A program made the translations under genes and the position numbers. Below the pieces are notes generated by a model, which did not search any database, had not been told where the DNA came from, and was given only the letters and a program-made list of their open reading frames with translations. A stretch of 53,614 nt of DNA, from positions 1 to 53,614 of the IMG/VR virus record IMGVR_UViG_3300024346_000015; one strand, given 5' to 3'. Shown here piece by piece: positions 1-53,614 of the stretch. The stretch comes from a virus. Within the stretch, counting starts at the first letter, position 1; the number at the start of each line of letters is the position of its first letter.

Positions 1-599
1 TTCTCCTTACCGGAGTAGATACGATGTACATTATTCTGTACATCATAACCATAGTCTTCAAAGTCTTTGTACATCTGTTCCACTAGACTTGTAGTCGGAA
101 CAATAATGAGTGTCTTACCTTCGGTTCGTTCCTGAACCCATCGCATCAGATTATAGATGATGAAAGACTTACCCGATCCTGTCGGGGATAACAGTAACGC
201 CCTCTTCTCTTCTATACCGTGGACGATTGCGTCATACTGATATCCACGTGGTTCGAATGGCGCACCGTAGTCTTTGATCTCCTTCATCAAAGATGGGTGG
301 TCAACCTTGTTCTTAATCTCCGGATGACCAAACTCATCACTGTCCATCAACTGTAACGGGTAGTACCTATCTGCACAGAATTTCTTCAGATGTTTGTACA
401 GTCCAACAGGTAACGTCTTGGTCACCATGTTGAATAGTTTAATCTTCCCGTCCCACCGTCTTGCCTTAAACGCGGGCATGAACTTATGGCCAGGCACAAA
501 GAACGAGAAGTAATCTCGCAACTCTTGCGCTTGATGTGCGTTACACTGCACCATTAATAGTGAGTGACTCTGCAATCCTATGGTGATGTTGTTATCCAT
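1..599 (-). CDS. uvsW: UvsW SF2 DNA helicase, N-terminal part (runs off the left edge)
   Basis: Manual translation from ATG at 599: MDNNITIGLQSHS...LRDYFSFFVPGHKFMPAFKARRWDGKIKLF; Walker A LLSPTGSGKS near 170-195; located downstream of uvsY. Confidence 0.95.
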   Translation of the reverse strand, partial: MDNNITIGLQSHSLLMVQCNAHQAQELRDYFSFFVPGHKFMPAFKARRWDGKIKLFNMVTKTLPVGLYKHLKKFCADRYYPLQLMDSDEFGHPEIKNKVDHPSLMKEIKDYGAPFEPRGYQYDAIVHGIEEKRALLLSPTGSGKSFIIYNLMRWVQERTEGKTLIIVPTTSLVEQMYKDFEDYGYDVQNNVHRIYSGKE

Positions 600-837
600 T
601 GAGGGACTTATTCAACTCCGTGTATCCGCCAATGTGGTTCCACTCTTCACCTTCTACTGTGAAGATCTGAGGAACAGTGCGAAATACTTGACCAGCCACT
701 GACATCAACCGTTCCTGTTCGGTCAATGCGATTTGCGTTAGATCACGGTAATCATACTCCAGACCATTACGTTCCAGTAGATCCTTTGCTTGTCTGCAAT
801 ATCCACAGACGGGTGTTCCTACTACTATATACTTCAT
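592..837 (-). CDS. Glutaredoxin
   Basis: CGYC active site, TVPQIF and HIGGYTEL motifs, 81 aa. Confidence 0.93.
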   Translation of the reverse strand: MKYIVVGTPVCGYCRQAKDLLERNGLEYDYRDLTQIALTEQERLMSVAGQVFRTVPQIFTVEGEEWNHIGGYTELNKSLNG

Positions 838-838
838 C

Positions 839-1288
839 TTATGCTCCTGCCTCGAATTGTTTCCATCTGATCATATTTCCGATCGTTTGATGTCTCCAGT
901 TAAGGTTATTTACTATTTCATTAAGTGTCTCAATTACAGTCTTTAGGTATGCGACCTTCTCTTCACTACGTTGAATCTCCGGATCGGAGTCGTAGTAATG
1001 TTCCATCTCACCTTTCAGTATCTTCAGACCGTTGAACGGGTCTGGTTCCCACCCTTTAGATTTGAGGGTGTTCTCGTCCATCTTACCATTGTAGTACAAC
1101 CACTTATCCTTCAACAGAATCTTCTGTACGTGATCGGCACGTTTCAAGGACAACTTGGCTGTGGACAGGTATTGTAAATATTTTGCGTGTAACATCGGAG
1201 TGTTACGGGACGTTTCGTCCAGTTGATGTGTAGGGATCTGACAGTCTGTCTTCCACTCACTCAATATCAATTCTAAATCTAACTTCAT
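839..1288 (-). CDS. uvsY: UvsY recombination mediator
   Basis: LHAKYL, KWLYYNGK and C-terminal IGNMIRWKQFEAGA typical of T4-like UvsY; synteny g3-uvsY-uvsW. Confidence 0.92.
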   Translation of the reverse strand: MKLDLELILSEWKTDCQIPTHQLDETSRNTPMLHAKYLQYLSTAKLSLKRADHVQKILLKDKWLYYNGKMDENTLKSKGWEPDPFNGLKILKGEMEHYYDSDPEIQRSEEKVAYLKTVIETLNEIVNNLNWRHQTIGNMIRWKQFEAGA

Positions 1289-1291
1289 AAT

Positions 1292-1939
1292 TTATTCCTC
1301 ATTCTTTATATAGTCTACCATATCTAACCAATAGTCTTGATCAAAACCCAATGTAAAACTCAGTGTCATTCTATAACAGTCAGTGTACGCACAGTGATAT
1401 ATGACTGGTCTTTCTTCTTCGTAACTTGCGAAGTATCCTACCTTACACGACCAACCCTTCTTGTCATGCATTGTATTTATCTTTCCGTTATCTACCCATT
1501 TGAACCAACCATCTCCGGTCTCACTCCACGTGAATATCACATTGAACGATGCCGCGTTTGCGTTATTGTGCCAGTCTATGAATCCTTGAGGTGGATACAA
1601 CTGAGACAATGCAGAAGACTGTAACCCCAATTCTGTCTTGAGTCGATCGTTGACTTCCTCGAAGTCTTTCGTGTACAACGCCTTCGCTTCCGCATCCGGT
1701 TGATTATAGTGTTGAGGTTTTATTGGATGCGAGTACGCAGCTCCGGGCAGACCGTCATGATCTGACCCCTTCTTCATTAATTCGTTTAGGTATTCTTCGG
1801 ATGTGAAGTGATTGCCCTCACCAATATGTTGGCTCATACAATCACTCGTCTTCGTGACATCATATTTCTCACGATACAAATAACGAAATCTTTCTAATAT
1901 ATCAAGAACACGTTGGTTCTTCACTTCAATAAACTTCAT
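1292..1939 (-). CDS. Putative 2OG-Fe(II) oxygenase/cupin-fold protein, paralogue of 21625..22338
   Basis: YPPQGFIDWHNNANA...FTWSETGDG...IYHCA...R pattern resembles a double-stranded beta-helix with His-x-Asn...His; family assignment is inference. Confidence 0.6.
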   Translation of the reverse strand: MKFIEVKNQRVLDILERFRYLYREKYDVTKTSDCMSQHIGEGNHFTSEEYLNELMKKGSDHDGLPGAAYSHPIKPQHYNQPDAEAKALYTKDFEEVNDRLKTELGLQSSALSQLYPPQGFIDWHNNANAASFNVIFTWSETGDGWFKWVDNGKINTMHDKKGWSCKVGYFASYEEERPVIYHCAYTDCYRMTLSFTLGFDQDYWLDMVDYIKNEE

Positions 1940-1940
1940 A

Positions 1941-2432: not shown

Positions 2433-2452
2433 TGATGTTCTCCTATACCTTC

Positions 2453-2460
2453 TATTTATA
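2453..2460 (-). promoter_or_regulatory. T4-type late promoter for g3
   Basis: TATTTATA on + strand = TATAAATA, 20 nt upstream of the g3 start. Confidence 0.85.
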
Positions 2461-2475: not shown

Positions 2476-3171
2476 ATGAACAGAGATATTAAAAAATTCC
2501 ACGAATGCGGTTATGTCATAGTTACCGACTTTCTCAGCGACTCGCAACATGAGGAGTTGGTGAAAGAATGTCATAATCTTGCCGACTTCGGTATGCATAA
2601 TCCCGATAAGTTTTGGGTTTTAAATGCACCAAACAATCCATGTAAACTTGACGGTGTAATGGAGTTGTCCGGTAAGTTATTTAGACTTGGTAGAAATGAG
2701 ACGTTGGTCAAGTATGCAAGGGAACTGATAGGGCCCGATATAGAGACCTATATCTCTAAGTTCTTTCCCATGATACCAAGGGAAGGATTCTCTGTAGACT
2801 GGCATCAAGACAATCATTACATAAAGGCAGATCCAAATAAGATGATCAGTTGTGATGTGTTTGTTGAAGGTGCGTCCAAAGAGAATGGTTGTCTACGTAT
2901 CATACCCAACTCTCAACATGAACTACTGCCCCACGAATTGACATCTCACGATGTATTCGATTGGATAGAAGATAGACATTGGGACAATATCATAGACATA
3001 GAACTAGACGAACCTTTTGCCATACTCTTTCACCCTCAGTTAATCCACAGTTGTTATCGTAACACTAGTGATCGATTTAGATACAGTGTTGCGTGGGAAT
3101 ATATCACCACCGATAACCACTCACCTATACACCGAGGGCATCATTCTCAAGATCGTTTAAATATCGCTTGA
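2476..3171 (+). CDS. PhyH/phytanoyl-CoA dioxygenase family 2OG-Fe(II) oxygenase
   Basis: FHECGY start, WHQD (HxD), ENGCLRIIPNS, LIHS...N.SDRFR motifs. Confidence 0.9.
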   Translation: MNRDIKKFHECGYVIVTDFLSDSQHEELVKECHNLADFGMHNPDKFWVLNAPNNPCKLDGVMELSGKLFRLGRNETLVKYARELIGPDIETYISKFFPMIPREGFSVDWHQDNHYIKADPNKMISCDVFVEGASKENGCLRIIPNSQHELLPHELTSHDVFDWIEDRHWDNIIDIELDEPFAILFHPQLIHSCYRNTSDRFRYSVAWEYITTDNHSPIHRGHHSQDRLNIA

Positions 3172-3196
3172 CTTAATTTGCTACATACTGTATAAT
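3168..3196 (+). promoter_or_regulatory. Sigma70-type (early) promoter for the DruA-like gene
   Basis: TTGACT (3168-3173), 17-nt spacer, TATAAT (3191-3196); GAGGA RBS before ATG 3222. Confidence 0.85.
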
Positions 3197-3221
3197 GTGT
3201 AACAGATGATGAGGAAAGTAA

Positions 3222-4352
3222 ATGATTTTAGAACATAAAGATGCGTTATACGCAGCAAATGCTTTTGATGAGTTCTTTGGAAACATAGAACGCATCGATG
3301 AATACATGAGACAGATCAAGATGGAACGTATGGAATCCTTTCCGTACTCTCTGCCTGGCATGGGGCCAGAAGAAGATCTGTTCAGCAACTTCGATATCCA
3401 TCCGTCAGAGATGGAGTTTGTAATACAAGAATCACCCGCACAACAGTTCATGTCCTACATGGAGATTGTCACGTCCGCACCCGTGGAAGCGTCAATTCCA
3501 GGCAAGGGACTGAAGTGGGTTATCAAAGAGAAGAATACTAACATGGTTGTTGGTATGATTCGTTTCGGTTCTCCTACTATTAATAGTAGACCACGGAACG
3601 AATGGTTAGGACGACCACTAGACAGTATGAATCCAGACGTAATGAAACGGTTCAATGACTCCGCAATCATGGGGTTCAACATTGTACCGACTCAACCGTT
3701 CGGTTACAACTATCTTGGTGGTAAGTTACTGGCCGCAATTTGTTGTTCCCACCACACACGTGAGGCATTGAACAAGAAGTACAATTCAAACTTCTGTATG
3801 TTCGAGACTACTTCGTTATACGGGTCAACAAAGTCTGCATCGCAGTATGATGGTATGAAACCATTTCTGCGGTTCAATGGTTTGACAGACTCAAACTTCT
3901 TACCACTAATCAATGACAACACTTACCGCAGACTTAGTGCATGGTTCGTTGAAAAGAATGGTGGTGAACCCTTGGTTCCTGTGGACGCCTCATCTCGTAA
4001 ACTAAAAACACAGACCAAGATGGCATCTATTATCAAAGCCTCTCTCAAGGTACATGATGAGAATGCCTATAAGAAGTTCTGTCAAACTTATTCGGATGCA
4101 AAGGGACTGACGGAACGTAAACGTTCTTTCGTGTCTACCTACGGGTACGACAACGTCCCTGCGTATTTGAACCTAGAAACCGATACATTGATCAAGAAAG
4201 AGAATTTCGACAGATTCTCTCTAGAGGGTGTTACTGCATGGTGGAAGAAGAATGCCATCAAACGTTATGACAAACTCAAGAGTGAAGGTCGTTTGCGTAG
4301 ACAAGTAGAGACTTGGAATGTAAATGCAGACGACATTGATATTATAAGATAA
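3222..4352 (+). CDS. DUF4338/DruA-like protein (possible GNAT/Mom-related fold)
   Basis: GSP...PRNEWLG, PFGYNYLGGKLLA and ETTSLYGS..SQYDG motifs recalled for DUF4338 proteins; the fold link is inference. Confidence 0.7.
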   Translation: MILEHKDALYAANAFDEFFGNIERIDEYMRQIKMERMESFPYSLPGMGPEEDLFSNFDIHPSEMEFVIQESPAQQFMSYMEIVTSAPVEASIPGKGLKWVIKEKNTNMVVGMIRFGSPTINSRPRNEWLGRPLDSMNPDVMKRFNDSAIMGFNIVPTQPFGYNYLGGKLLAAICCSHHTREALNKKYNSNFCMFETTSLYGSTKSASQYDGMKPFLRFNGLTDSNFLPLINDNTYRRLSAWFVEKNGGEPLVPVDASSRKLKTQTKMASIIKASLKVHDENAYKKFCQTYSDAKGLTERKRSFVSTYGYDNVPAYLNLETDTLIKKENFDRFSLEGVTAWWKKNAIKRYDKLKSEGRLRRQVETWNVNADDIDIIR

Positions 4353-4433
4353 GAGTCTTATATATACTACTGTGTTCTATAATCCTCAATGAGTTTTATA
4401 TTTCACTTAATTTAATCCAATAGGAAAATAACT

Positions 4434-5420
4434 ATGTCAATCATAACACTAGCTGATTATGTCAGCACAAATACAGACCATATCGCGTTACCCGACTACA
4501 CTGACCTTGGTGTAGAATCCGTAGAAAACATTGTACTATCTTTTGACCAGATTCATATCGATGATATCACTGGCAACGTAGGTAAGGTAGACACCCACAC
4601 TGGCGCTGAGATCGAACAACTTAGGTTGTCTTTCGCTGACGGTGTCGATTCCCAAGAGTTTCCACCCGCAGTTTATTACCGTGGTGCGGCGTTTAGTAAA
4701 CCATACGTCCTTGTATATGGTTACGGTAGATCCGAAGCGATTCGTGCTTTGGGACAAAAAGAGTGGATCTTTACTTTGTTCGCTGGTACACCAGAACAGA
4801 TGGAAGATGTACAGGCACAAGAGAACGAGGGATATCCCAAGCGATTCAACAAAGAAGTCGATATGCGTAAACACCTGAGTCGCAAAGTTGCAAATGGTCG
4901 CATCAAGAATACAGAGAAGGCGATTACCAAAGAGTTCATTAGAATCTACGGTAAGACACGAGATAAGACTTGTCGTAACCGTGTAGTGAAAATGGTTATG
5001 GAAGCGGCAGATACGCCACAACCGTATATCCTATATACCTCTGTCCCTAAAGTACAGGATTGGGTATCTAACCACTCTTCGGTAGAACATGTTATCGGTG
5101 GTGAGTTCAGTGAGGAAACCAACTCATACGGTGTATGTATCGGTGAAGGTTATCAGTATCGTGTTATCATGCAGGCTGTTAATCGTTACATGGAGACAGG
5201 TAAGTTTACCAACCTTATTGGTCATGTAGGCGCACCGACTTCAAAGGCGACACTAGAGATCAAACGAAAGAGATTTGTTGATCAGTTAAATACACACAGA
5301 CAGGCATTAGAGTATTGTGGGTTGACTACATTCCCCGTGAGACTTCTTGGTTTCTTACCACAAGAACAGGGTAAAGAAAGTTTGAAACAATTAGTAAAAT
5401 ATTCCTTGCCAAACAACTAG
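4434..5420 (+). CDS. Hypothetical protein, possibly with a divergent ParB/Srx-like N-terminal domain
   Basis: 328-aa ORF with AGGA RBS; PPAV...YVLVYGYGRSEAIRALG resembles the ParB Y.I.DG.HR..A...LG motif. Confidence 0.55.
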   Translation: MSIITLADYVSTNTDHIALPDYTDLGVESVENIVLSFDQIHIDDITGNVGKVDTHTGAEIEQLRLSFADGVDSQEFPPAVYYRGAAFSKPYVLVYGYGRSEAIRALGQKEWIFTLFAGTPEQMEDVQAQENEGYPKRFNKEVDMRKHLSRKVANGRIKNTEKAITKEFIRIYGKTRDKTCRNRVVKMVMEAADTPQPYILYTSVPKVQDWVSNHSSVEHVIGGEFSEETNSYGVCIGEGYQYRVIMQAVNRYMETGKFTNLIGHVGAPTSKATLEIKRKRFVDQLNTHRQALEYCGLTTFPVRLLGFLPQEQGKESLKQLVKYSLPNN

Positions 5421-5435
5421 AGTTTGTGTTATAAT
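5406..5435 (+). promoter_or_regulatory. Sigma70-type promoter with extended -10 for the tRNA
   Basis: TTGCCA (5406-5411), 18-nt spacer, TGnTATAAT (5427-5435), 13 nt before the tRNA 5' end. Confidence 0.8.
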
Positions 5436-5448
5436 ATACCCATATTAT

Positions 5449-5520
5449 GCGGAGTTAGTATAATGATTACGTTAGGTGTCCAACCTAAAGATGGGGGTTC
5501 AAGTCCTCTGCTCCGCTCCA
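5449..5520 (+). tRNA. tRNA-Gly (anticodon TCC), non-canonical, with encoded CCA
   Basis: Cloverleaf GCGGAGT-TA-GTAT-AATGA-TTAC-G-TTAGG-TGTCCAA-CCTAA-AGAT-GGGGG-TTCAAGT-CCTCT-GCTCCGC-T-CCA; G1-C72, C2-G71, G3-C70 and U73 are Gly identity elements. Confidence 0.9.
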
Positions 5521-30127: not shown

Positions 30128-33100
30128 TTAGGATTTTCTAACATATAGCGTATAAGTATCAATGACACTGGAAGTTGTTGAAACTGTTATCCCTGTGTAA
30201 TTACCCAAGAAAGATTGTGTTGAGTTAGTACCGAAAGCTCTGGTATAAGTTCCGGTGTAGTTACCCACATAGGTTTCTGAACATACTCTAGTATACTCAC
30301 CTATATATGTAGACACTCTATCTCGTGTGTAAGTAGATATTCTGTTTCTGGTAAACGGATTAAGAAGGTTCGTATAGTTACCGGCATAGTTACCAACGAA
30401 GTTTCTAGTATAATCACCAGTATAATTACCAGTGTAATCCGCAGTATAATCACCAGCATACGCAACCGTTCTGGTTCTAGTACTAGTTCGAAGGAAGTTA
30501 CCTACATAATCTTCGGTGTGATCAGTTACAAAATCTCCGACATAACTTGAAGCCCGTGTTCTAGCGAACGCGGAAGAACGTGTTCTCTCGTATGAAGATG
30601 TTCTTGGAGTAACACGAGTCCTTTGAAAGGTCGAGGTTCTTGATCGAGTACTGACTCGACTAGAAGGGGTCACACGTGTTCGTTGAAAATCTCTGGTATA
30701 ATCACCAGCGAAAGATCTAGAGTATCCGGATACGCGATTACGATTGTAATTACCAACGAAGTCTCTTGCGTATGAGGATATTCTGTTACCTGTAAAATCT
30801 CTTGAACTAGTACGAGTTGAAACGTAAACCTCTAAACGAGTAAATACATTGGCGTAGTTGGTATAGTTACCAACGAACCCTCTGCTATAACTGGATACAC
30901 GTTGTCTAGTGAACACGCTAGTACTATCTCTGGTACTGGTTCTGGTTGACGTTCGAGTAAATGCACTAAGTCGTTCTCTAGTGAATATCTGGTCACGTTC
31001 CCTAACGAACGCCCTAGTCGAAGAACGAGTCGAGGTTCTTTGGAAGTCTCTAGTACTGCTTCTAGTAAACGCATTTACATAGTTGACGTAATTACCAGTG
31101 AAGTTAACGTTGCCAGCGAAGTCCAATATAGCTGCATATTCACCAGCGAACATTCGTACAAAATTTCTACTAAAGTTACCGAGGAAACTGGTGGTCGTCA
31201 TGTTGTCGCCCAGAGCTTCATCACCAGTTGCACCAGAATATGTAATTGTACGAGCAGATGCTCTAGGATATGAGGGTATTCTTGCGAATTGTCCACCAGC
31301 GCCAGTATACACTGTCATTCTACCATAAGCGGGGCCAATATAGTTTGGCCCGACAAACGCTACGGGATAGTAAGTAGTTTGATAGAAACCACTTTGATAT
31401 CTCGAAAACGCTTGGTACCTAGTAAATACATTTTGACCAGCAGGAACGGTTATCCCGACTTCGACAGGCGCACCGCCACCATGAGGGCCTTGAACGGCAG
31501 TTACGTATGAAGTGAGACCTGTTGCTATCGCTCTTACTCTAACATATTGTTGACTGTATATAGAGTAACGACCTCTGGAGAAAGTCGATGACCGTGAAAA
31601 GGAACTTGCCTTGGCGCGAGTTCTGGTATATGCACGGGTAAAGTCGCCAATATATGCGTTGACGTAGTTAACGTAATTACCAGTGTAATTACCAGTATAT
31701 TGATTAACGTAGTTAGTATAGTTACCTGTGAAGTCACCTGTATAGTTACCAACAAAAACATTAACGTAGTTAGTATAGTTACCAGTATAGTTACCGGCAT
31801 AATCGCCAACAAAGTTACCAGTATAAGAGTCGGTTATTGTTCGTTGATAGTTACTAGTACGTGTTCTATTGAAGGTAGACGTGCGTTCCTTAGTAAAGTT
31901 ACCAGCGTAGTTACCCGCATAATAAACAGTATTAGTATTGGTGAAATCCCGCGAGTAAGTTGATTCGCGAATCGTGGTGTAGTTACCAACAAAAGTTCTA
32001 GAGTATGATGAATTGCGACTACGAGTAAAGGCTGATATTCTGTTACCTAAGAAGTTACCCGTGTAATTACCAGTGTAATTACCAACAAATGCGTTGATGT
32101 AGTTGGTATAGTTACCAACGAAGTTTCCTACGAAATTTCTGGAATAGTTACCCACATAACTTGACGCTCGGTTTCTATTGAATGACGAGTTTCGAGTAAC
32201 GGTTCGGTTACCTGTAAAGGTAGACGTTCGAGTAGTTGTATAGTTACCAGTATAGTTACCGGCATAATCGCCAGTGTAGTTACCAATAAAATTAGAATTT
32301 CTGAGTCGTGTCGATTCTCTGGTATAATTAGAATTACGTGTACGAAGGTAATTACCTACGTAGTTTCTAGTAAAATTCCCAATGAATCCTCGAGCGTAGT
32401 TACCAGTAAACGCATTAACAAAGTTGGTGTACTCACCAGTATAGTTACCTGTATAGAGTCCAATACTATCGTTAACATATTCTCCACTATAAGTCGATAC
32501 TCGACCAGTATAGTTGTTAAACGCATATGAAGATACGCGAGTACGAGTGTACTGTTTTGGAGTTAGATCGTTTCTAGTGTCGGTTGCACTACCTACAGAC
32601 TTCCAAACTCCGGTCGCAGTTGGAGTTCCTTGTGATGAACTACGTAATTCGTATGATCCAATGTTACCCGCGATTGCACGTCTAGTTTTAGCCCACTGAC
32701 CTAAAGTATACGTAAGGTTAGATTCACTAATCATTTGAATACCGTCATACCCATCACTATCTTGAATATGCGCTACGTCAATCGCTGTCGGTGAAGTCTG
32801 AGTGGTTCTCTGCCATATGTAATATGGGGTCTCTGAGTTATCCGTTCGAGTATCAGAGAACGCTTCGAACCTACTGGTATAATCAGAACCAGGCGAGTTT
32901 GCGCCTAGTTTGTAACACCCAAGATAGTCATTGGTTGCGATGATACTGTTCAGTCTATCGACAAGGACATTCATATCCGAATCAGCAAATTGGTGAATAC
33001 CTTCCTTGCCATTTTTGGTAGAATATGATACGGGTCGTTTGAATTTAGTATTACCGCCCGCCTCTACACCAGAGGTAGTAGCGGTACCGCCCAGTTGATA

Positions 33101-33370: not shown

Positions 33371-36052
33371 TTAATTATTCAGTAGAGTTCCGCTCGCATC
33401 GTAAACATCTATAATTCTATCTGCTACACGATTTAAAGCGGTCACTATATCTTGGTTATGTGAATCGTAGAAACTAGATAAACTTGTTCTCGTACCAAGA
33501 TCGCTATCTACTTCATTGATCGCACCGACAAGATCGGTTGCAGTAGTATTTAGTGTTGTGCCAGGCGTGATAGTTCCAGCCGTTGTAACATTCGCACCAC
33601 TGAATGTCAATACAGTGGTATCACCAGATCTTACTATCAAGTTACCCGAAGTATTCTGGAATCTACCGAACTGAGTTCCACCGTCTTTAAGTAGTACGTC
33701 ACCACCGTCTGCATCTAGTACTATGTCACCAGCAACATCCATAGTCAGACTACCACCAAAGACTTTCATCTCAGTACCAGCGCTTGGTGCATGATTGTAA
33801 TCGAACTCGACTCTTGTCGTATCAGCAGAGTCTCTGAAGAATACCTGACCATCATCTACATCAAAGTAAAGATTCTTCTGAGTGTTTGTGATAAGACTTC
33901 TGTTATGTACTGTCATGTAGGCGACATCAGCAGTACTGGCACCTAGATCAAAGGATATACCATTTGAGTCCGCAGTCTTGAATACAATGTCTTCACCACG
34001 AGAGTTTAATACGATATCACCGCTTGCATCAAGGTTGATACCACCAGTAGTATTCTTTATCGTGTTGCTGTTGATATTGAAGTTTGCGATAGTACCACTA
34101 TCACCATCTAGGTTGTCCGCAAATACTGTTCCGTCAAACCATGCGTGTCTCCATTGAAGAGTGGACGATCCAAGATTGTTTGCGTTAGTTGTTTTTGGTA
34201 AAATATTAGTATCAACTTTACCGTTTATAGAAATGTCATCTGCAGCCGCATTACCCAGATCAACATGACCATTCAATGTAGTATTACCATCTACATTCAG
34301 TGTTCCATCAACATCAAGGTTGTCCTCAATGTTTACGTCTGAGTTAAATACTACATCTGAATCGTTGAATGATGCAGCAAGGATTCCGTTTGAGTAGATA
34401 CCTAATTGGTTATCACCGATGTGTTTGAATCGACCAAACTCTGTTCCGTTGTCTTTAAGAATAACGTCATCTGCAGCTGCATCTAGGATGATATCTCCAG
34501 TTGCATCTACAGTAAAGTTCCCAGCAACGTCTAGTTCTAGACCGCCTTGTGAGTACAACTGTCGAACTAAGGTAGCGTCTCCCGCCATACCCATTTGAGT
34601 CTTGACGAATTGCGTACCTTGTCTAGAGAAGATAAGGTCACTGTCGCCAACATCTAATGTAAGGTCATTCTGAACATCTAATGTTAAACTACCTACTACA
34701 TCGATTTCTTGATCAGCAGCGAAGTTGAAAGTAAACTTGTTTACTCCATTGTCTTTCATGACGATGTCGGCACCATTCGCATCTAGGACAATATCGGTTT
34801 CCGCATCTAGTGTGATGCTACCAGTTGTCTTTACGAGAGTGTTACCAGTAGTATCAATTTCTAGGTCACCGCCAGTCACAACATCGAGTGTTCCTCGTGT
34901 ATCGATGTCCATGTTTCCAGTCGCACCGATATGGTATGTACCAACTGCACTGTCCGATACATTACCTGTAACCGTTTCGGTTCGGTTACCAGTTGTTGCG
35001 ATTGTGGTTGTTGTGCCTAGAGTATATTCTTGACGTGTTGTACCACCATCTTTTAATCTTATATTGTCTCCACCGGCATCAATGATGATATCGTTAGCTA
35101 CATCAAGTGTCAGATTATTTGGAGTAGTGACAGTAAGGTTTCCATCATTAGCAAGATTGATCTGTGCAGAATCAGCACCCGCTCCATTTCTGAAGACTAG
35201 GTCATTACCATCCGCATCTAGGATGATATCTCCAACCACATCAAGTGTATAGGAGCCTGGAGCAGTAACCGTATATCCAGCACCATTCGCAAGAGTATGA
35301 GTTACTTGGTCTGCGCCAGTACCATTCTTAAAGATAATGTCGTTACCGTCTGCGTCCAGAGTAATATCTCCGGATACATCTAGATTAAGATTTCCAGCAA
35401 CGTCTAGTTCTAAACCACCCTGTTGATATAATTGTCTTGTTAAAGTATCATCACCTTCCATACCCATCTGAGTCTTGACAAAGACGGTACCTTGTCTACG
35501 GAAGAAGATGTCACTGTCACCGGCATCAAGGATTACGTCTGCGCCAGCGTCCAGTATGATATCATTAGATGCGTTAAGGTCAATATGTCCACCTGTCGCA
35601 TTTACTACTAACGCACCCAGTGTGTCTATATTGTGATTGCCAGTTGTTGTTATTGATCTAATACCACCAACAGAATCAGTAAAGTTCCCTTCAGTATTAA
35701 CAATGTAGGTTCCGGAATAGTCACCCTCAAAATTAACACTGGTCAGTTCGATATCCGCAACCGCATCAACAAGAAAGTCTCGACCAGCATCGATATCAAT
35801 GTCCGTACCACTACTTTGATTAGTACTAATCTTTAGTCGTGTCTGAGTCTCCCCCGCTTGTCCGTTGGGATATAAGATCTCACCAGCAGATGCGTCAAAT
35901 GTGGCTTCGATTTCATTAATTACTGTGACAAGATCGCTGTCTTGATAGGTATTCAGTTGTAATGGGTCGCCTACGTTATTAGATAATATATTGAACTTGT
36001 CAACAAATATCTTAAACGATTCTTGCATTCTTACTATTGGTTTTCGTGACAT
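33371..36052 (-). CDS. Fibre/baseplate-associated protein with repeated DI.LDA.G.DI.F units (probable trimeric beta structure)
   Basis: 893 aa, many LDA repeats, DLV.AINE motif at both ends, NLGSSTLQWR motif. Confidence 0.75.
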   Translation of the reverse strand: MSRKPIVRMQESFKIFVDKFNILSNNVGDPLQLNTYQDSDLVTVINEIEATFDASAGEILYPNGQAGETQTRLKISTNQSSGTDIDIDAGRDFLVDAVADIELTSVNFEGDYSGTYIVNTEGNFTDSVGGIRSITTTGNHNIDTLGALVVNATGGHIDLNASNDIILDAGADVILDAGDSDIFFRRQGTVFVKTQMGMEGDDTLTRQLYQQGGLELDVAGNLNLDVSGDITLDADGNDIIFKNGTGADQVTHTLANGAGYTVTAPGSYTLDVVGDIILDADGNDLVFRNGAGADSAQINLANDGNLTVTTPNNLTLDVANDIIIDAGGDNIRLKDGGTTRQEYTLGTTTTIATTGNRTETVTGNVSDSAVGTYHIGATGNMDIDTRGTLDVVTGGDLEIDTTGNTLVKTTGSITLDAETDIVLDANGADIVMKDNGVNKFTFNFAADQEIDVVGSLTLDVQNDLTLDVGDSDLIFSRQGTQFVKTQMGMAGDATLVRQLYSQGGLELDVAGNFTVDATGDIILDAAADDVILKDNGTEFGRFKHIGDNQLGIYSNGILAASFNDSDVVFNSDVNIEDNLDVDGTLNVDGNTTLNGHVDLGNAAADDISINGKVDTNILPKTTNANNLGSSTLQWRHAWFDGTVFADNLDGDSGTIANFNINSNTIKNTTGGINLDASGDIVLNSRGEDIVFKTADSNGISFDLGASTADVAYMTVHNRSLITNTQKNLYFDVDDGQVFFRDSADTTRVEFDYNHAPSAGTEMKVFGGSLTMDVAGDIVLDADGGDVLLKDGGTQFGRFQNTSGNLIVRSGDTTVLTFSGANVTTAGTITPGTTLNTTATDLVGAINEVDSDLGTRTSLSSFYDSHNQDIVTALNRVADRIIDVYDASGTLLNN

Positions 36053-39200: not shown

Positions 39201-42200
39201 GCACCACATCGGAAGACTCTACCCCAAGCACGGGTAGCAGTAATTACGATTTCGTCCTTGACCTTTGCCTCAATCGCAGATGCTCCATTCGACCAAGTAG
39301 ACCCGCTCGGAGGTTCATTCTTATTAATCGTCTGACCAGTATATGCAGCTTCAGATGTTGTAGTAGCGACTACAAAGTCACCAGCAACTTGGTTATGATC
39401 GCGTGAAAGAACTTCGACACCACTACCGATAACTTCACTAGTAGAAGTCGAACCAGTCTCAACCCAATCACCATGATCTACAGTGACATCTTCACCTGTT
39501 TGACGGGTAGACTCACCTGTCACCGCTACGGACTGTGAACTTGATACTAACGGAGAGGTTTGCATTCCAACACGCAAGTCGTTTACGTTAGTACCACCCC
39601 ATGCATATTCTTGTTCGTTCCAAAGAAGTGCTTGAGATGCGTCAAACTCTGTACCACCATCGACAACCATCGGTGCGTCTTGTTTGAACGACTTCCAAGT
39701 ATCTTTAGATGGAGACAGTACTAAGTCACCATAAGTCTTTTCAACATGGAATGGGTTGACATTAATTGTCTGAGATGCCATGTTCTGTGCGAAGTATTGT
39801 ACTTCAGTGTGATCCAGATAAAGGTTATCACCCTTCTGAACCATACGATTGGTACTACTATGATTGGAGTCGAATAACATCTCGACAGTATCACAAGTAT
39901 AGCCAGGACGGATGACACCCTTTGTGGGATCATGTGACGCACGGTGTTCTATAGACTTAGTGTCCATGAACTTCTGGTTCTTGAAGTTATCAACAAAGAA
40001 ACCAGTGTGGATACGTTCGTTACCATCGGAGTCAAACAATCTTTCGTTAGTCGCATTAAGTTCCAACAAAGAAAGAGTGGTTGCTTGTTCTAGACGGTCT
40101 ACACGTTTGTCCAGTTTACCGATATCTTCCATCGTGTAACCACGTCTTGGAATGATAGTGGTTTTGAGATCCTTAGTGTGTAATGTGTTTGCACCAAGTT
40201 CGATCTTATAGAGATCAATACAATCTACCGGAGTAGATGGGAACTTAGGCATCATTGAAGATACACCCTGAATGTAACGCAACTCACCACTCTTAGACAA
40301 TACTAATTTGTCCAGACGTGGCATGTAGTATTCTGCATCAGCGTTAACAAGATTATTACTTGAGGGCAGACCAAAGATTAGTGGACTAGAACCGAAGACA
40401 CCGTTGGAGTCAACCGAAGGACGGAAATCTAAAACGTCTCGTAGACTGACCAATCGACCTTTTTCAGTTCTATGTACCGGAATGTTTGAGTAATCAACGG
40501 TACCGTCATATGAGTTTACACCAAAGAACTCACCATCACCAGTTTGGTGTTGGAAGTGTTTGAATGAAACGTGGATATTCTGTCCCGCAGAATCAAGGCC
40601 AGAACCACCGTAGAGTAGTTTACCTAAGTCATAGTGAGTGTCACGTTGACCGTAATCTATACGGAATAGGTTTAATAGGTTTTTACCGTTAGCACTATCT
40701 TCTCGTACACCATCGATACTATAGATGTCAGTCTTTCTCAAGTTAATGAACTGAGTACCTGAACTATCTGAAGATAAGTTAAATGTATCTGCGACAGGCG
40801 TCAGAGTTTTAACTCGTTGTTGAGCGTTAGAGATCTTCTCAAAGTACTGGATAGTGTAGACAGTGTTATTGGCTAGTTCACTAACAGTAGTAGAAGATGC
40901 ACCAAAGTTGATTATAGCACCATCAACTCGTGCTTCGGTCGCAGATGAAACTATCCAGTTACCTACGTTGTCTAATGCATTACCACTAGAAGCAGTGACA
41001 GAAAAGTTACCACTACCATCGGATGTAATAACCTTACGCTTAGCAACAGTAAGAGAGATGTCACTGAAGATTTTAGGACGTGAGATAGGTGTGTCAAACA
41101 ACAATGGACGTTTGTCGGATTGTTGTAATGCAGCACGCTCAGATCGGTTTGTACCTAAACCAGCAGTAAGAATTACGTTATAGTATAACCCACCATTAAC
41201 ACCGATCGAACGTATGTCACGGATACTCTTGGCTGCGTTAGAAATTCTTGTATTGAATACAAATAGATGTATACGATCATCACCTATTGGACTAGATGCA
41301 CGTACACGTGTAGTACCAATTACGTTACCACCGGCATTCACTGCATCAAACAGTTGCAGTTCTTGAACATTCTCAAAGTCAGCCATACCTTGACTAGACG
41401 CTGCGTTTATGATAAAGTAGTTACCATAGTTGACAGTGATTGAATCGTTGTTTCTAGATAAAGTCTTTATTGGTTTCTCAACAATGATTGTGGACTCAGC
41501 GTCCTTGTTGATACGGTAACCCTGAACATATGCAGTTCCGGGCGTGACCTTCAACTTCATTGTAGTGAGATCGTTTGGTTCGAACGAAGAACGGAAGTAA
41601 CGTTTAACATAGTCACCCGCAGTTTCGCGAGTACGTGTTGCCATCTCTTCTTTGATAGACTTGAAACCAGAACTAGCGGTTACTGCACTAACAATGTCAC
41701 CACCTAAAACTTCGATTACCTGAATGAAGTTCTTAGCGACTGTGGTAGTACGACCATCAGCAAGTGTTAAAGTGATACGATAACGGTCAGCGCCAGGCGA
41801 TGTTAAGTTTGGAGTCTCACCTTGGTTGTCGTATAGAGTCGTGTCATCATCGACAGTAACAATCTCTTGATCGATAAGGAATCCGAATCGACTAGATTGG
41901 TTAGTAGAGTACTTACCGAATATCAGACTTTGTGGTGGACAATATACAACACGTCCCTGAACAAAGAAGTGTCCTTCATCAACCGATATCTCTGACGCTA
42001 AACCGACAGCTGGGTTGTTAGAAGTATTGATCGACTGTACTTCGAATGTGAATCCACCTGTAGTACTCGTAATGGTACTACCTGAACCAACTCTAGTAGA
42101 TGTTGCACCCGTGTTTGTATCTGACGTGTATTCTACATAGAGAGTATCGGGATCACCGTCTACCGCTGCAATGTACTGAATGACACGGAATTTAATTGTA

Positions 42201-48986: not shown

Positions 48987-50425
48987 CCTTTAAACCTCTT
49001 TCCTCTATTCTCAATTGAATTACCTATAGGCACCATACCAAATCTTGAAGACGGTTTAGCATTAACTGCACGTCCTATCTTCGGTGGACTAGTGTTATCA
49101 TAGTCAGAATTAAGTCTACCTTCACCTACCATCTTGTTTCCAATCAAAGAACGGTTAGCGGTGTCACGAATCTTAGACCTAAGTTCTTGGGTTGTCGGGA
49201 TCTTCTCGAACAGTCCTTCGTAATCGTCACGTAGAAGAATCTTATTCTTGAGAGAGTCAGCCGCATCAACCGATATGGCACGTACTGCAAAGTCACCCAT
49301 TGTCATCATTGCACCAATCGCATCTGCAAGTGGTACTGGTTTCTTCGGTGTTGGAGTCTCTTGTGCTTCGACTGCCTTCTTAACGGTAGGATCACTCGCA
49401 GCACCAGCCGCACCTAACGCACCAGCAGTTGCCGCTTTCTGTGCTTGGAATGCAGTCTTCGCCTTGTCTGCTACGTTTGCGTTGTATGACTTGATTGCCT
49501 CTGATGCCTGTCCGTGGAACGATCCATAGAACGCAGCACCGGATGCAAAAGGAACCGCACCCATTGGCCCCATGTAAACGGGGGAAGTCATCTCTACCTG
49601 TTCACCACCGATCACACCCTTCATACCCATGACAGATAGTTCCGATCCAGTGATCGACATGACAGGTGAGGTTAAAATACATTCTGTACCCGCAGTCATA
49701 GTAAGACGATTGTCCGTCATTATCTGGATCTCTCCCTGAACATGGTTCTTGTAGTAACCCTTAGTCCAGTTAGAGTTTTGACCCAGAGTAATCTCAGCCC
49801 TATTCTCTACGGTCTTGTATGACGCAGATCCTTTAGTCGTATATTCGGTGTTCTTCGATACTTCGGTACGTTTGTTCAACAATACACTTTGACGAGAGTT
49901 ACCGTGTATGTTTAGATTGTGATTACCACCCACGTCCATATTCCAGTCACCTGTAACCGTCTGGTTCAGATTACCCTTATAGACCATCTCAGCATCACCC
50001 TCTACGATGACCGTATTGTCTCCTCCGGTCACCTCGACTTTATTGTTCGGAGATGATATAATGATAGAACCATCAGCACGCATTTCGATACCACCACCCT
50101 TACGGTGTTTGATAAGAATACGTTCACCGCCTGGCGTATCATCATGTTCAATGACATGACCTGATGCGGTCTCCATGACCTGATTGAACGGGTACTGTGA
50201 TGGTTGTTGATCTTCTATATTAAGTGATACGTTAAAGTCACCACCCCCAACATAGAGTTCATTTACCTGAAACCCACGTGCAGCTTGGTTTATACTAGAC
50301 GTATAATGATAGTCCGTTCTAGGAAACTCACCAGTAGGATCTTGAAACCCTTCCTGTGGTACACCAAGAGTTCTGTCCTTGGCTGTATTCTTCCCTAACG
50401 AATTTTTATTTGATTCTGTTGTCAT
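48983..50425 (-). CDS. gp5: gp5 C-terminal (beta-helix needle) protein
   Basis: FQDPTGEFP, YPFNQVMETASGHVIE.DDTPG.ERI...H, V.GD-type repeats. Confidence 0.88.
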   Translation of the reverse strand: MTTESNKNSLGKNTAKDRTLGVPQEGFQDPTGEFPRTDYHYTSSINQAARGFQVNELYVGGGDFNVSLNIEDQQPSQYPFNQVMETASGHVIEHDDTPGGERILIKHRKGGGIEMRADGSIIISSPNNKVEVTGGDNTVIVEGDAEMVYKGNLNQTVTGDWNMDVGGNHNLNIHGNSRQSVLLNKRTEVSKNTEYTTKGSASYKTVENRAEITLGQNSNWTKGYYKNHVQGEIQIMTDNRLTMTAGTECILTSPVMSITGSELSVMGMKGVIGGEQVEMTSPVYMGPMGAVPFASGAAFYGSFHGQASEAIKSYNANVADKAKTAFQAQKAATAGALGAAGAASDPTVKKAVEAQETPTPKKPVPLADAIGAMMTMGDFAVRAISVDAADSLKNKILLRDDYEGLFEKIPTTQELRSKIRDTANRSLIGNKMVGEGRLNSDYDNTSPPKIGRAVNAKPSSRFGMVPIGNSIENRGKRFKG

Positions 50426-52329
50426 TGTGGTTTCTTCGTTATCAATTCAGATGGAGTAAAAGACGTATCTTTCGATAGATCTTCGTATACGGACTTCTTG
50501 CGGAATACCGTTTCTACATATTGTGATACATCAAAGTATGGGTCAGTCACTAAGGGTTGTATTTCGTTGTGACCAAACACTTGTCCACCATGATATCTTC
50601 TATAGAATGCTTCACATACTGATTCAAAGGTTGTCATCTGTTCACGAGTGAATGACTGTGAGGAACGATACTGATCCGGATTATCACATCCTGTCGCACA
50701 GTTTAGACCACCTACCAGACATATCTCGATCACAGTATCCGTGTGACCATTAACCACATTACTGGTCGATCTATCCATCGGTCGGGCTCTCTGTAAACGT
50801 CCGTCTCTACGTATCACCAAGTGATATTGAATACCATCGTCACCCGCACTAGTATGGTCAACGTGTAACTCTTCTGCACCAATGTTTTGGTTAGTGTATG
50901 TGTCTGACGCATGTACAACCATTCCGGTTATAGGACGTTTTATAAGTCTAAATTCTGTCCCCAGTTCTTCCTTAGAATCAATATAAGTGTATGCCTCAAA
51001 CGCACTACTCTGTCCATCAAACTTAGCGAGTGTCTCAGTGAGATCAAAGTCTTTAACTACAAATGAATCTGAGGTAGTAATAAGTGAACCGGAGATCGTG
51101 GTATCCAGTGCAGAGAAATCTGCCTCAGCAGCGAAGACACGTTGTTGTGTTGCCTCGATCTCTGCATCCTCGATACCTGCGGCCTTCGCCTTTACCTTAA
51201 CCTCATTCACAAACTCATCGTTAGTCTTACCTTCGGGAATCGATCCGATAACAGCCTTCATTTTAGGACTGAGTGTTTTATCTTCTCTGATTGTCGATTG
51301 TGTCGCCTTTGCGATACCTTCTAAAGTACCGTCCAATGCAGAAGAAACGATCTCAGTGACCTTACCTAATCCAAGGTTTGCGTTACTGGTAACACCTCGT
51401 ACTAGACTAGTCGCAGCGTTGGTGATGTCCTCTGTGATATCTTGTAACATACCAAGACCAGTCTTTACCGGAGACTTATCGAAGAACTCTTGCAATGCAC
51501 CCTGACTCTTTTCTAATCCTTTCAACGGTGCGTTGACTCCACTAGTAATCGCAGCACCTAGATCAGAAGCAGTTGCAGAGATAGAGTTTAAATTTCCTTG
51601 TAGATCGGTACTCATAGTACCAATATCGTTCTTAACATTACTCAATAAGTCTGCGGCAGGGTTCAATGATTGAATAGATGATACCTCTGAGGTAATATCC
51701 GCAACCATACCTTCTGCTTTCTTTATGGTATCGGTAATCGCACCTAGTCCACCAGTTGCGCCACCACCTGTTCCAGATGCAGCCTTTACTTCACTCGCAA
51801 CCCCTTGGATCTTTGACTTCAATGCACTAGACTTACCCTCAACATCTGTTGCGGTTGCACTGATTGCGTCTAGAGATGATGCACCTAGTGTCTCCACTTC
51901 TAGTTTAGCAACAGGTGCGCCTAGTCCAGTTAACTGAACAACCACGTCAGATACAGATTGTTCTTCTTGATCACCCGCGACAATAGTGGTTTCCGCACCC
52001 GAATCCAATCCCACCGATACTGTGAGAGAAGGGGCAGACAGAGTCATCAGAGAAGATGCGGGATCTGCGACACCGGATAGTCCGGTTACCTGATCACCGA
52101 AAGAACACATCGCATCACCCATGGCGGTCTGCCCTGCGTTATCGATCTTAGACTCCATACTAGTAATACCACCGAACACCGCACCCGTTTCACTACCCAA
52201 TAGTGTCGCATTCTTTGCGAACGTATTTTCGGTTAACGCTTTTGCGGAGGCATCGAGACTAGCACCAATACTTGAACCAGCTTGGTTGTCTGTTAATCTA
52301 GAATTAAGTTGACTTTTATTTAAAGGCAT
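50422..52329 (-). CDS. Baseplate-region protein with C-terminal N-acetylmuramoyl-L-alanine amidase (T7 lysozyme-like)
   Basis: VVHASDT, IQYHLVIRRDG..QR.RP, ICLVGG, FT.EQ, VFGHNE....DP.FDV; Ala/Ser/Gly-rich N-terminal part. Confidence 0.85.
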   Translation of the reverse strand: MPLNKSQLNSRLTDNQAGSSIGASLDASAKALTENTFAKNATLLGSETGAVFGGITSMESKIDNAGQTAMGDAMCSFGDQVTGLSGVADPASSLMTLSAPSLTVSVGLDSGAETTIVAGDQEEQSVSDVVVQLTGLGAPVAKLEVETLGASSLDAISATATDVEGKSSALKSKIQGVASEVKAASGTGGGATGGLGAITDTIKKAEGMVADITSEVSSIQSLNPAADLLSNVKNDIGTMSTDLQGNLNSISATASDLGAAITSGVNAPLKGLEKSQGALQEFFDKSPVKTGLGMLQDITEDITNAATSLVRGVTSNANLGLGKVTEIVSSALDGTLEGIAKATQSTIREDKTLSPKMKAVIGSIPEGKTNDEFVNEVKVKAKAAGIEDAEIEATQQRVFAAEADFSALDTTISGSLITTSDSFVVKDFDLTETLAKFDGQSSAFEAYTYIDSKEELGTEFRLIKRPITGMVVHASDTYTNQNIGAEELHVDHTSAGDDGIQYHLVIRRDGRLQRARPMDRSTSNVVNGHTDTVIEICLVGGLNCATGCDNPDQYRSSQSFTREQMTTFESVCEAFYRRYHGGQVFGHNEIQPLVTDPYFDVSQYVETVFRKKSVYEDLSKDTSFTPSELITKKPQ

Positions 52330-53237
52330 TATTCACCTATTAGTTCCTGAAGACCAATGCAGAGTCTCTCTACACTTTCGAAGTCACTCTCTTTCTTTAC
52401 ACCAAGATAATACTTTGCAAAGACTCGTTGACAATTGTTCTTTAGACCTTTTTCGTTAGTATCTGTTTTACGTAAACGAATGTTTGCGGCCGCTTGACTA
52501 CTATTTAGTTCAAATTTAGTGAAGACCAATTGAGTCGCATATTTCGACCAATCGTTACTAAAGTTCTTGAGTATAAGTTTACGTTCGTTTTCCCATCCCG
52601 CAATACCTAGAGGGTTATCTTCACCCGCAACCTCTACGCCAGTCTCATTAAGTCTTGACTTGAAAATAAGTCCTGCCATAATACCGACTGATTGTTTCAA
52701 TGAGTAACCAGCACTGAGGAAGTATTTGACTCCCTCTAGTTGACGAGCCTGCATTGTATTACCATAGACTCGACCGACATTATCGTTCTCGACCTTCACT
52801 GTATCGATAACACTTATTTGTTGTTCAAAGAATACCACGTCTTGCGAGATTCTCTCTTGTACAGTCTTGAACTGAACATTACGTTGAACACGTGTAGGAT
52901 ACTCTATCTTAGGTATAGATCCCAACACCAATGGTATCTGTGAAGCGACACCATCCATGAAGAATCCGAATACCGTTGCACCTGAAGTCAGTCTAGGTGT
53001 TTTACCTAAACCAGACACACCCGCCTCTGTGGTAGGTAGTACTACTTGGGCCCAAGGTAGATCGTTCTGTGGTATCTCTCTTGTAGATGGATTGTGTACA
53101 CCGTGGACACGAATCTTGACACGACCTTCCAAACCATATGGGGGTGTGTGGTCAACAACATCTGCGATAAACCAACGAGTATTGTCACCGTAGTATTCTG
53201 TTTGGATTGCTTTCATTATCCCCTCACCAACTTGCAC
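52329..53237 (-). CDS. gp5: gp5 N-terminal OB-fold fused to a degenerate phage tail lysozyme domain
   Basis: WFIADV...GRVKIRVHGVH...DLPWAQV..P, VFGFFMDG...Q.PLVLGS; then GYS..Q.VGIM, GIAGW, QL.F...EL; true start probably MKAIQ. Confidence 0.85.
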   Translation of the reverse strand: MQVGEGIMKAIQTEYYGDNTRWFIADVVDHTPPYGLEGRVKIRVHGVHNPSTREIPQNDLPWAQVVLPTTEAGVSGLGKTPRLTSGATVFGFFMDGVASQIPLVLGSIPKIEYPTRVQRNVQFKTVQERISQDVVFFEQQISVIDTVKVENDNVGRVYGNTMQARQLEGVKYFLSAGYSLKQSVGIMAGLIFKSRLNETGVEVAGEDNPLGIAGWENERKLILKNFSNDWSKYATQLVFTKFELNSSQAAANIRLRKTDTNEKGLKNNCQRVFAKYYLGVKKESDFESVERLCIGLQELIGE

Positions 53238-53614
53238 ACTGTCATAACAACATCATGACGTGTGTTCTTGAATGTATGTCTTGTGTTATAGATTAGGAAC
53301 TCACCTGTTCGCAATAAGTCGAAAGGTTCTGTTGATTGTGGATCACCATCATCGGAGATTGTTTGGATCTTAACTATATCACCAACACTGGCTTTGGCAA
53401 CAATGAATCCTGCGCCTGGAACAGTTAATTCAAATTGATTCTTGTATAACATATTTCTTATAGCAACGTTTCCGACCTTAGTCTTGAAACTGCCTGGCTT
53501 CATTTCATCATGATAACTCTTGAACGTACCATATGTACCTGTAGATGTAATCTGATGATATATTCTAGAATCTAATTGATCAACGTATTCATCATTTAGC
53601 TTAAATTCTTCTGG
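53216..53614 (-). CDS. Probable baseplate hub protein, C-terminal fragment (frame open to the right edge)
   Basis: No stop codon upstream of 53503 up to the window end; VPG....VGD.V...GEFLI...RH.F C-terminal motif; position before gp5. Confidence 0.7.
   Translation of the reverse strand, partial: PEEFKLNDEYVDQLDSRIYHQITSTGTYGTFKSYHDEMKPGSFKTKVGNVAIRNMLYKNQFELTVPGAGFIVAKASVGDIVKIQTISDDGDPQSTEPFDLLRTGEFLIYNTRHTFKNTRHDVVMTVCKLVRG

Follow-up and report, generated by a model that had tools for sequence, protein, structure and literature searches.

Flank-dependent avoidance of restriction sites in an uncultured marine T4-like myovirus and its association with a DruA-like gene

Related DNA-modification systems and the phage genome

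The Mom protein of phage Mu, a DNA adenine carbamoylmethyltransferase, acts on a DNA base only within a short sequence context, and many restriction enzymes are blocked by this modification. Here we analyzed the first 53,614 nucleotides (hereafter the window) of the IMG/VR record IMGVR_UViG_3300024346_000015, an uncultured marine T4-like myovirus in which CCNGG sites survive only with a G immediately before or a C immediately after them, and compared this flank rule with the distribution of a DruA-like (DUF4338) gene at 3222-4352 of the window, the candidate writer of a DNA mark. Two further described systems are close to this one. In the marine T4-like Synechococcus phage S-B43, CmoA-CmoX-CmoY carboxymethylates cytosine C5 in GC motifs, then adds glycine and blocks HhaI, and about 75% of GC sites carry 5-(glycyl)carboxymethyl-C (Yang et al. 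2025, PMC12783734). In uncultured aquatic phages, GpC[C/T] is the main recognition context of C5-methyltransferases that are coupled with TET enzymes and glycosyltransferases, and an anti-restriction role is presumed (Burke et al. 2021, PMC8256090).

The source genome is a single linear contig of 122,343 bp with a CheckV completeness of 74%; its termini fall within uvsX and uvsW, the interval of about 20 kb between these genes is missing, and the minus strand carries most of the genes. The capsid protein is 69% identical to that of C48C1, 60-61% to those of the OM43/SAR11 myophages Melnitz and HTVC008M, and 56-58% to those of Synechococcus myophages. A megablast search against phages matched a single distant record and nothing closer. 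The nearest relatives found were the ENA KOBI21-1 scaffolds (up to 150 kb, 80-90% nucleotide identity), and G006 is a complete, collinear relative of 144 kb with terminal repeats.

Expected counts were obtained by calling open reading frames (ORFs) and shuffling synonymous codons within genes 200 times, which keeps both the protein sequence and the codon usage. Counts are given below as observed/expected; paired counts list unflanked sites and then, after a semicolon, flanked sites, those with a 5' G or a 3' C. Where four lineages were pooled, they were our contig, G006, G001 and the KOBI contigs. Short DruA-positive loci had too little power alone, and whole contigs were used for the association.

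The locus shares some features with each of the described systems and differs in others. Mom (PDB 8bv8) is, like the DruA-like protein, a phage protein of GNAT fold and its best structural match; however, the DruA-like protein belongs to another Pfam family (PF14236/DUF4338) with no detectable sequence similarity to Mom, and its inferred context, G-C-[C/T], would make the target C or G, not A. The CmoA-CmoX-CmoY system marks C in a GC context, blocks restriction and leaves the same footprint, but CmoX, a homologue of C5-methyltransferases, is recognised by its SPPC motif and by an arginine that binds carboxy-S-adenosylmethionine (Cx-SAM), and no such homologue was found in our contig. CmoA, the Cx-SAM synthase, and CmoY, an amide ligase, were likewise not found in our contig or G006 by phmmer and tblastn, and none of the three was found in the KOBI scaffolds across the missing uvsX-uvsW interval. 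The hypermodification system of C5-methyltransferase, TET/5mYOX and glycosyltransferase shares the GC[C/T] context; in contrast, the glycosyltransferases of our contig (70-76 kb) are not linked to the footprint, and homologues of PF00145 and PF12851 were found neither here nor in the relatives. Classical palindrome avoidance also shows strong depletion against a codon-preserving null and site sets that vary among relatives, whereas the avoidance described here is conditional on one flanking base and reaches amino-acid usage. DruA of type I Druantia belongs to the same Pfam family, PF14236. Unlike it, the phage gene stands alone without DruB-DruE, among PhyH, an unknown ORF, a tRNA, and tail-tube and capsid genes; its subfamily is almost purely viral, and its proposed role would be counter-defence, not defence. 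No description of flank-conditional site avoidance was found in the literature searched.

Restriction sites retained only beside a flanking G or C

A first-pass annotation of the window, made from the letters alone, had reported a G before or a C after every CCNGG, and an exhaustive count bears this out: all 33 CCNGG sites of the window have G at -1 or C at +1. The window has no HCCNGGD against 54.0 expected, and GCCNGGC occurs 16 times against 2.7. The whole genome gives the same picture (CCNGG 54/160, HCCNGGD 0/114±8.5, GCCNGGC 24/4.7). The accompanying statement that CCNGG occurs only where Pro-Gly forces it is right for 52 of the 54 sites genome-wide (frame 0), with two elsewhere, and the chance that all 52 Pro-Gly sites would be flanked is about 1e-23.

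The number of flanks matters as well. At the 41 Pro-Gly positions that permit both flanks, 23 sites carry both, 18 carry one and none carries neither, which is a dose effect far above what a single flank would demand. One base per side suffices; GGCC was ruled out as the protective context, with just 1 of 43 GGC codons followed by C, and no requirement for a base at -2 was found when looked for. Pro-Gly and Gly-Pro are themselves depleted relative to amino-acid composition (52 against 90 and 40 against 90 expected), and therefore selection acts up to the protein level.

The rule is not confined to CCNGG. Six site types that begin with CC or CT obey it in our genome, namely CCWGG (0/85; 44/32), CCSGG (0/36; 10/12), CCATGG (0/15; 6/7), CTGCAG (0/23; 5/11), CTCGAG (0/12; 4/5) and CTTAAG (0/13; 1/5). 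All 70 surviving sites of these types are flanked, and the unflanked total is 0 against about 184 expected; the four hexamers alone give P = 5e-9. Pooling of the four lineages left no unflanked copy of any of them (CCWGG 0/273, CCSGG 0/87, CCATGG 0/43, CTGCAG 0/67, CTCGAG 0/33, CTTAAG 0/49). Examples of survivors in the window are:

490-494: first surviving CCNGG, context GCCAGGC
53493-53497: last surviving CCNGG, context GCCTGGC
52119-52124: sole CCATGG of the window, context CCCATGGC, with the C flank on the 3' side
34240-34245 and 34471-34476: CTGCAG survivors, both in context TCTGCAGC
26004-26009 and 32389-32394: CTCGAG survivors, both in context CCTCGAGC

The protective edge can be read as G-C-[C/T], because sites starting with CG gained no relief from the same flanks (CGWCG 0/110; 0/45, and likewise CGTACG and CGSCG; GCG edges 0/55), sites starting with A, G or T gained none in our genome, and GCA or GCG inside a site is not protective, with GTGCAC, TGCGCA, ACGCGT and CGCG all purged. 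The control flank pairs A..T, T..A and C..G also gave no relief. The annotation had proposed GCC or GpC as the modified motif. This was right about GCC edges; GCT edges are rescued as well, and GCG and GCA edges (the latter judged in the cultured phages below) and internal GCA or GCG are not. Two extensions of the motif were discarded. GCGC is not a further site under the rule, its unflanked deficit being due to TGCGCA and CGCG-containing words, with AGCGCA normal; and words that contain GCC have no blanket exemption (CGSCG 17/80, AGGCCT 1/7.5, CGGCGC 0/12). As a side observation, AGCY words are low regardless of the flank rule in our genome, G006 and S-B43 (AGCT at 0.39 and AGCC/GGCT at 0.47 of expectation), and G007 and G008 purge AGCT, GGCC, AGSCT and GGSCC far harder.

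GGNCC sites behave differently. GGWCC is absent (0 against 31.9 expected in the window, 0/86 genome-wide), so that both it and HCCNGGD are far from normal frequencies in the genome-wide count against codon-shuffled controls that the annotation had proposed, and its claim that Gly-Pro is never encoded with GGT or GGA extends to all 40 pairs of the genome, which use GGC or GGG. GGSCC, in turn, occurs 25 times in the window against 9.0 expected and 64/39 genome-wide, is at a normal rate away from Gly-Pro (21 against 25.8 expected), and is likewise retained in relatives without relief. L032 and G011 follow the CCNGG rule, yet do not avoid GGWCC (11/9 and 62/87), and L014-L016 avoid GGWCC in the absence of the flank rule. 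Because GGSCC is normal and the two rules are uncoupled among relatives, GGWCC avoidance is ordinary avoidance of the AvaII/SinI type, caused by a separate agent. The idea that one GCC mark underlies both rules thus keeps its force for CCNGG, where the hexamers, S-B43 and the DruA association agree with it, and loses it for GGNCC.

Other sites are fully or nearly purged genome-wide irrespective of flanks (CGWCG 0/156, ACCGGT 0/41, ACGCGT 1/18), and CGTACG, GACGTC, GTCGAC, GTGCAC and TGCGCA have zero copies. GAATTC, which the annotation had listed as not avoided, is in fact scarce (9/52 genome-wide, 5/23.6 in the window); its corresponding statement on GATC was correct, since GATC is enriched (703/570), and that on CCGG was correct overall (196/212) and wrong for ACCGGT. 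Which sites are avoided varies from one related phage to another, in line with host-specific enzymes. CGWCG, of the Hpy99I type, is wholly missing here and CGSCG strongly reduced, and G003, L053 and L054 show no CGWCG avoidance at all. GATC is wholly missing in some close relatives (among L006, L022, L023, L025 and L030), a contrast to our phage that suggests hosts with and without GATC-specific restriction.

Distribution of flank relief and of the DruA-like gene

The DruA-like gene lies in a plus-strand island close to the start of the window:

2476-5520, plus strand: island with a PhyH dioxygenase, the DruA-like protein, a 328-aa ORF and tRNA-Gly(UCC)
2476-3171, plus strand: PhyH-type 2OG-Fe(II) dioxygenase; absent from G006, not following the footprint
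3222-4352, plus strand: DruA-like / DUF4338 protein of 376 aa, GNAT fold, Pfam PF14236; candidate writer
4434-5420, plus strand: 328-aa island protein, no Pfam or PHROG match; not following the footprint
5449-5520, plus strand: tRNA-Gly (UCC), end of the island

Comparisons among cultured phages showed that relief at flanked sites goes with this gene. S-PRM1, a DruA-positive phage of the Synechococcus host strain WH 7803, lacks unflanked CCGG and retains flanked copies (0/108; 32/56; CTCGAG 0/10; 3/5), whereas the DruA-negative phages S-BM3 and S-CAM8 of the same strain have lost CCGG in both contexts (0/93; 0/35 and 0/96; 0/41). The DruA-positive Synechococcus phage S-CAM9 resembles S-PRM1 (CCGG 0/119; 37/58), HTVC008M (KC465899.1), also DruA-positive, retains flanked CTGCAG (2/25; 9/18) and CTTAAG (1/15; 4/5), and the DruA-negative C48C1 has no CCSGG of either kind (0/42; 0/20). 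No C5-methyltransferase was found in the six complete cultured genomes tested. Contigs from metagenomes show the same: those with DruA and without a C5-methyltransferase include G017, whose capsid protein is 56% identical to ours (CCGG 0/86; 8/28), and G011 (CCWGG 0/68; 25/21; CTGCAG 0/22; 4/11). G006 obeys the rule perfectly (HCCNGGD 0/123; CCGG 0/98; 9/42; CTGCAG 0/21; 6/10). G007 and G008, which lie outside the clade and have neither a methyltransferase nor the DruA-like gene, serve as negative controls in which CTGCAG is purged without relief (1/23; 0/23).

Flanked sites with a GCC edge amount to 293/408 in seven large or complete DruA-positive genomes (ours, G006, G001, G011, G017, S-PRM1, S-CAM9), to 5/146 in five genomes with neither gene (G007, G008, C48C1, S-BM3, S-CAM8) and to 98/127 in three CmoX-positive genomes (G003, G009, S-B43); the corresponding counts for GCT edges are 46/104 versus 0/69. 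DruA and CmoX never occur together in the sampled contigs. On the capsid tree, the relief genomes, 18 in number, all group in a single clade (support 94/87) in which the CmoX-positive ones make up a subclade and three nested relatives have lost the relief; the trait is heritable at the level of the clade. The nested relatives L014, L015 and L016 keep CCNGG only at Pro-Gly codons and without G/C flanks, and L015 has no DruA-like gene where its sister L005 has one. The island as a whole (PhyH, 328-aa ORF, tRNA-Gly) was dismissed as the causal unit; only the DruA-like gene co-occurs with the rule. The annotation had placed the enzyme either outside the window or in this island, and the island's DruA-like gene is indeed the likely writer, since relief follows it in same-host phages.

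The DruA-like protein matches PF14236 with 41.7 bits (curated cut-off 27; E 1e-10). Its AlphaFold2 model, built from a 40-sequence alignment, has a GNAT fold (predicted local distance difference test 92, predicted template modelling score 0.88), and the Foldseek and VIA-align hit lists contain GNATs throughout. Among 48,161 PDB representative chains, the top structural match is Mu Mom (Z 10.0, root-mean-square deviation 3.7 Å over 167 aligned residues), and one homologue was annotated 'methylcarbamoylase mom' by its depositor. An independent source also assigns DUF4338 to the GNATs (PMC10853773). Residues G167-K168-L169, Y209 and W341 are invariant. The subfamily is huge and almost wholly viral, with more than 6,600 homologues, and marine phage contigs with DUF4338/DruA-like proteins number in the thousands, to which about 20 cultured cyanophages and pelagiphages can be added. 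Homologues of 43-55% identity are found in HTVC008M and about 20 cultured Synechococcus myophages, usually next to polymerase or clamp-loader genes; in HTVC008M the gene lies between DNA polymerase (gp43) and uvsX. On the T4 map, DNA-modification genes are kept at this polymerase-uvsX location. Among distant relief genomes the position of the gene varies. In G006 and the KOBI relatives, identity of the protein reaches 94-98%, against a genome-wide median of 75%. At the nucleotide level, 3178-4352 of the window shows 95.7% identity to KOBI contigs (L299, L301) in the DruA-like gene and 79-84% in the flanking genes, an excess that points to recent exchange or very strong constraint.

S-B43 provides the reference for a GpC mark. 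Its genome does not avoid CCWGG or GGWCC, and the sites it purges to near zero all lack GC (CCGG 8/190, CCSGG 1/36, ACCGGT, TCCGGA, CTCGAG, GTCGAC, GACGTC). The surviving CCGG and CACGTG sites are all G/C-flanked (CCGG 0/143; 8/46; CACGTG 0/7; 6/8). With a proven GpC mark in S-B43, its flank pattern, the same as ours, is the footprint of such a mark. The inferred G-C-[C/T] equals the GpC[C/T] specificity reported by Burke et al., and this context is therefore already known to be targeted by anti-restriction marks of phages. GCA edges are rescued in S-B43 too, but not in S-PRM1 and S-CAM9 (flanked CACGTG 0/6 and 0/6), as would be expected if the DruA type had the narrower specificity, G-C-[C/T]; our genome has no purged GCA-edge site, so its motif comparison with S-B43 is limited to the other edges.

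None of the known writers was found in our phage. Scans with hidden Markov models (HMMs) and catalytic motifs recovered no C5-, N4/N6- or Dam-type methyltransferase, TGT/DpdA or TET/JBP in the contig, G006 or the KOBI scaffolds across the missing uvsX-uvsW interval (the KOBI gap); C5 and N4 methyltransferases were the enzymes that the annotation had suggested looking for. Six-frame scans likewise gave no PF00145 match, CmoX-HMM match or motif in G006, the KOBI gap or the contig, the last being incomplete. The KOBI scaffolds span the whole interval, which holds only T4-type replication genes, two oxygenases, a small Methyltransf_24 protein and sugar-nucleotide enzymes; the second 2OG-Fe(II) oxygenase lies between gp47 and gp46. 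Methyltransf_24 proteins were rejected as the writer, being also present in G007 and G008, which have no relief. G003 encodes CmoA, CmoX (E 3e-154 to PDB 8yf3) and CmoY, and the cluster also occurs in L228, G009 and L124; in G003 and L228 the cmo genes fall in the interval missing from our contig. The full cmoY-cmoA-cmoX cluster of G003 (G003:C1:14083-18549; L081, L082), an uncultured non-cyanophage T4-like phage, lies between gp43 and a conserved unknown gene, a junction that is uninterrupted in G001 and G006.

A proposed DNA mark, its likely writer and competing explanations

These observations are best explained as follows. Under heavy Type II restriction pressure, the phage has dropped the sites of many enzymes by synonymous change and has even depleted Pro-Gly and Gly-Pro. 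Its DNA most likely bears a covalent, context-specific mark at 5'-G-C-[C/T]-3' steps, and where a site has CC or CT as its start and a G before it (or, for the other strand, a C after it), its outermost C:G pair would lie within a marked step, which would hinder cleavage. A single flank would confer partial and a double flank full protection, so that flanked sites would be tolerated and CCNGG forced by Pro-Gly would be steered to GCCNGGC. The most likely writer is the DruA-like GNAT-fold protein, whose simplest chemistry would be acylation of an exocyclic amine, for example N4 of C or N2 of G; in sister lineages, cytosine carboxymethylation by CmoA-CmoX-CmoY would take the same role. The existence of a phage-borne mark, as judged from the comparative data, is highly probable, and we assign a probability of roughly 0.6 to the full statement of a mark at G-C-[C/T] written by the DruA-like GNAT. 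That this protein gives context-dependent protection is what we infer from the genomic footprint and the genotype association; the base bearing the mark and the GNAT as its maker are proposals on the same footing. Whether DUF4338/DruA-like GNATs in general form a new post-replicative DNA-modifying family, which would place acyl-type marks at G-C-[C/T] with variants such as that of HTVC008M and replace CmoX/C5-methyltransferase systems, is about an even bet.

Several findings weigh against this explanation. In the two frames where CCNGG is avoidable, G/C-flanked sites number 1 against about 25 expected, so that protection is only partial and flanked CCNGG is tolerated, not neutral. Sites with an internal GCT are still depleted (AGCT 0.39, GAGCTC 2/10.5, AAGCTT 7/23), and the depletion of the AGCT family is about 2.5-fold in our phage and similar in S-B43. 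The relief loci L003, L011/L012 (= G002) and L030 have no DruA-like gene beside the capsid gene on their incomplete contigs, where DruA or CmoX may lie elsewhere in the genome, and DruA-positive G016 shows no relief at tiny expectations (CCGG 0/6; 0/5). In HTVC008M, sites starting with G also need a flank (GATC 0/198; 83/129; GANTC 0/204; 43/61, the latter split into GAWTC 0/144; 28/39 and GASTC 0/60; 15/22), a rule broader than a pure G-C-Y mark, which suggests that specificity differs between DruA subfamilies. Generic GNATs score Z 9.6-9.0, and because they lie within one Z unit of Mom, a Mom-like function is a lead and not fold-level proof. The genomes are phylogenetically related and provide only about 3-4 independent contrasts, all support for the mark and its writer is comparative, and the actual writer could be some other gene in linkage with DruA.

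This last point leads to a rather unlikely alternative, in which the mark is real but its writer is another, unrecognised gene of the phage that accompanies the DruA-like one, the GNAT doing something else. The association is correlative with few independent contrasts, and clade-specific unknown ORFs exist, such as a small JmjC protein and a 144-aa ORF beside uvsW, as does a cluster of sugar, radical-SAM and carbamoyltransferase genes at 70.5-81 kb. Yet the DruA-like gene is the sole candidate common to the distant relief genomes (S-PRM1, S-CAM9, G017 and our clade), its varying position speaks against simple linkage, and the presence of Methyltransf_24 in no-relief G007 and G008 removes one such gene. 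It is very improbable that there is no modification at all and that the nucleases simply cut poorly after G, the true avoided words being HCCNGGD, HCTGCAGD and the like. Nucleases with the CCGG/CCNGG module do cut adjacent to the flank base, several of them read the outer base, and a graded effect of one versus two flanks would suit half-site discrimination; however, the same exclusion of G is found in six unrelated site types, and one flank preference common to nucleases of unrelated folds is unlikely, and therefore the cause should sit in the phage DNA. CTGCAG is, moreover, purged without relief in G007 and G008.

Both this alternative and a mark placed by a conserved host methyltransferase, for which there is only a slim chance, meet the WH 7803 phages: S-PRM1, S-BM3 and S-CAM8 share host strain and purged site and have relief or none by their own genotype, and therefore neither host methylation nor nuclease flank preference can explain the difference. 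A host enzyme would agree with the failure to find a classical DNA methyltransferase, TGT or TET in G006 or our contig, but the trait follows the phage tree, with nested losses. Hardly probable, too, is a CmoA-CmoX-type C5 modification encoded in the missing stretch of about 20 kb between uvsX and uvsW. G003, G009, L228 and L124 carry cmoX in that interval and show relief (G003 with cmoA and cmoY as well), but the KOBI21-1 scaffolds cover it without a C5-methyltransferase, G006 and G001 have none either, CmoX does not co-occur with DruA, and CmoX of S-B43 rescues GCA edges too, for which our genome offers no purged site to compare.

If the DruA-like GNAT does write a G-C-[C/T] mark, it would add a new enzyme family to phage DNA modifications, very abundant in the ocean and present in Synechococcus and SAR11 phages, and would give the first functional clue to the domain (DruA/DUF4338) that Druantia shares with other defence systems. 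Flank-conditional avoidance would then read out the phage's own DNA mark: a single flank base at surviving restriction sites can reveal both a mark and its motif from plain sequence, uncultured viruses included. The cultured pairs on the same host (S-PRM1 or S-CAM9 versus S-BM3 or S-CAM8) make the hypothesis directly testable.

Some further genes were noted in the course of these comparisons. The small JmjC protein and the 144-aa ORF beside uvsW (G006 40754-41293 and 49759-50193) occur in all relief genomes with coverage and not in G007 or G008; they and ThyX were set aside as clade-specific candidates because the contrasts are too few, and the substrates of ThyX are, in addition, mononucleotides. 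Sequence searches of PHROG and PDB with the unknown ORFs of the 70-83 kb cluster and those next to cmoX gave no match. Outside the window, the region G000:C1:68551-80815 combines a zeta-toxin-like kinase and a radical-SAM/SPASM enzyme with glycosyltransferases (two GT25, one GT8), a carbamoyltransferase and a Methyltransf_24 protein. Homologues of some unknown ORFs of this region adjoin cmoX in G003, and the cluster could be a glycan or hypermodification island.

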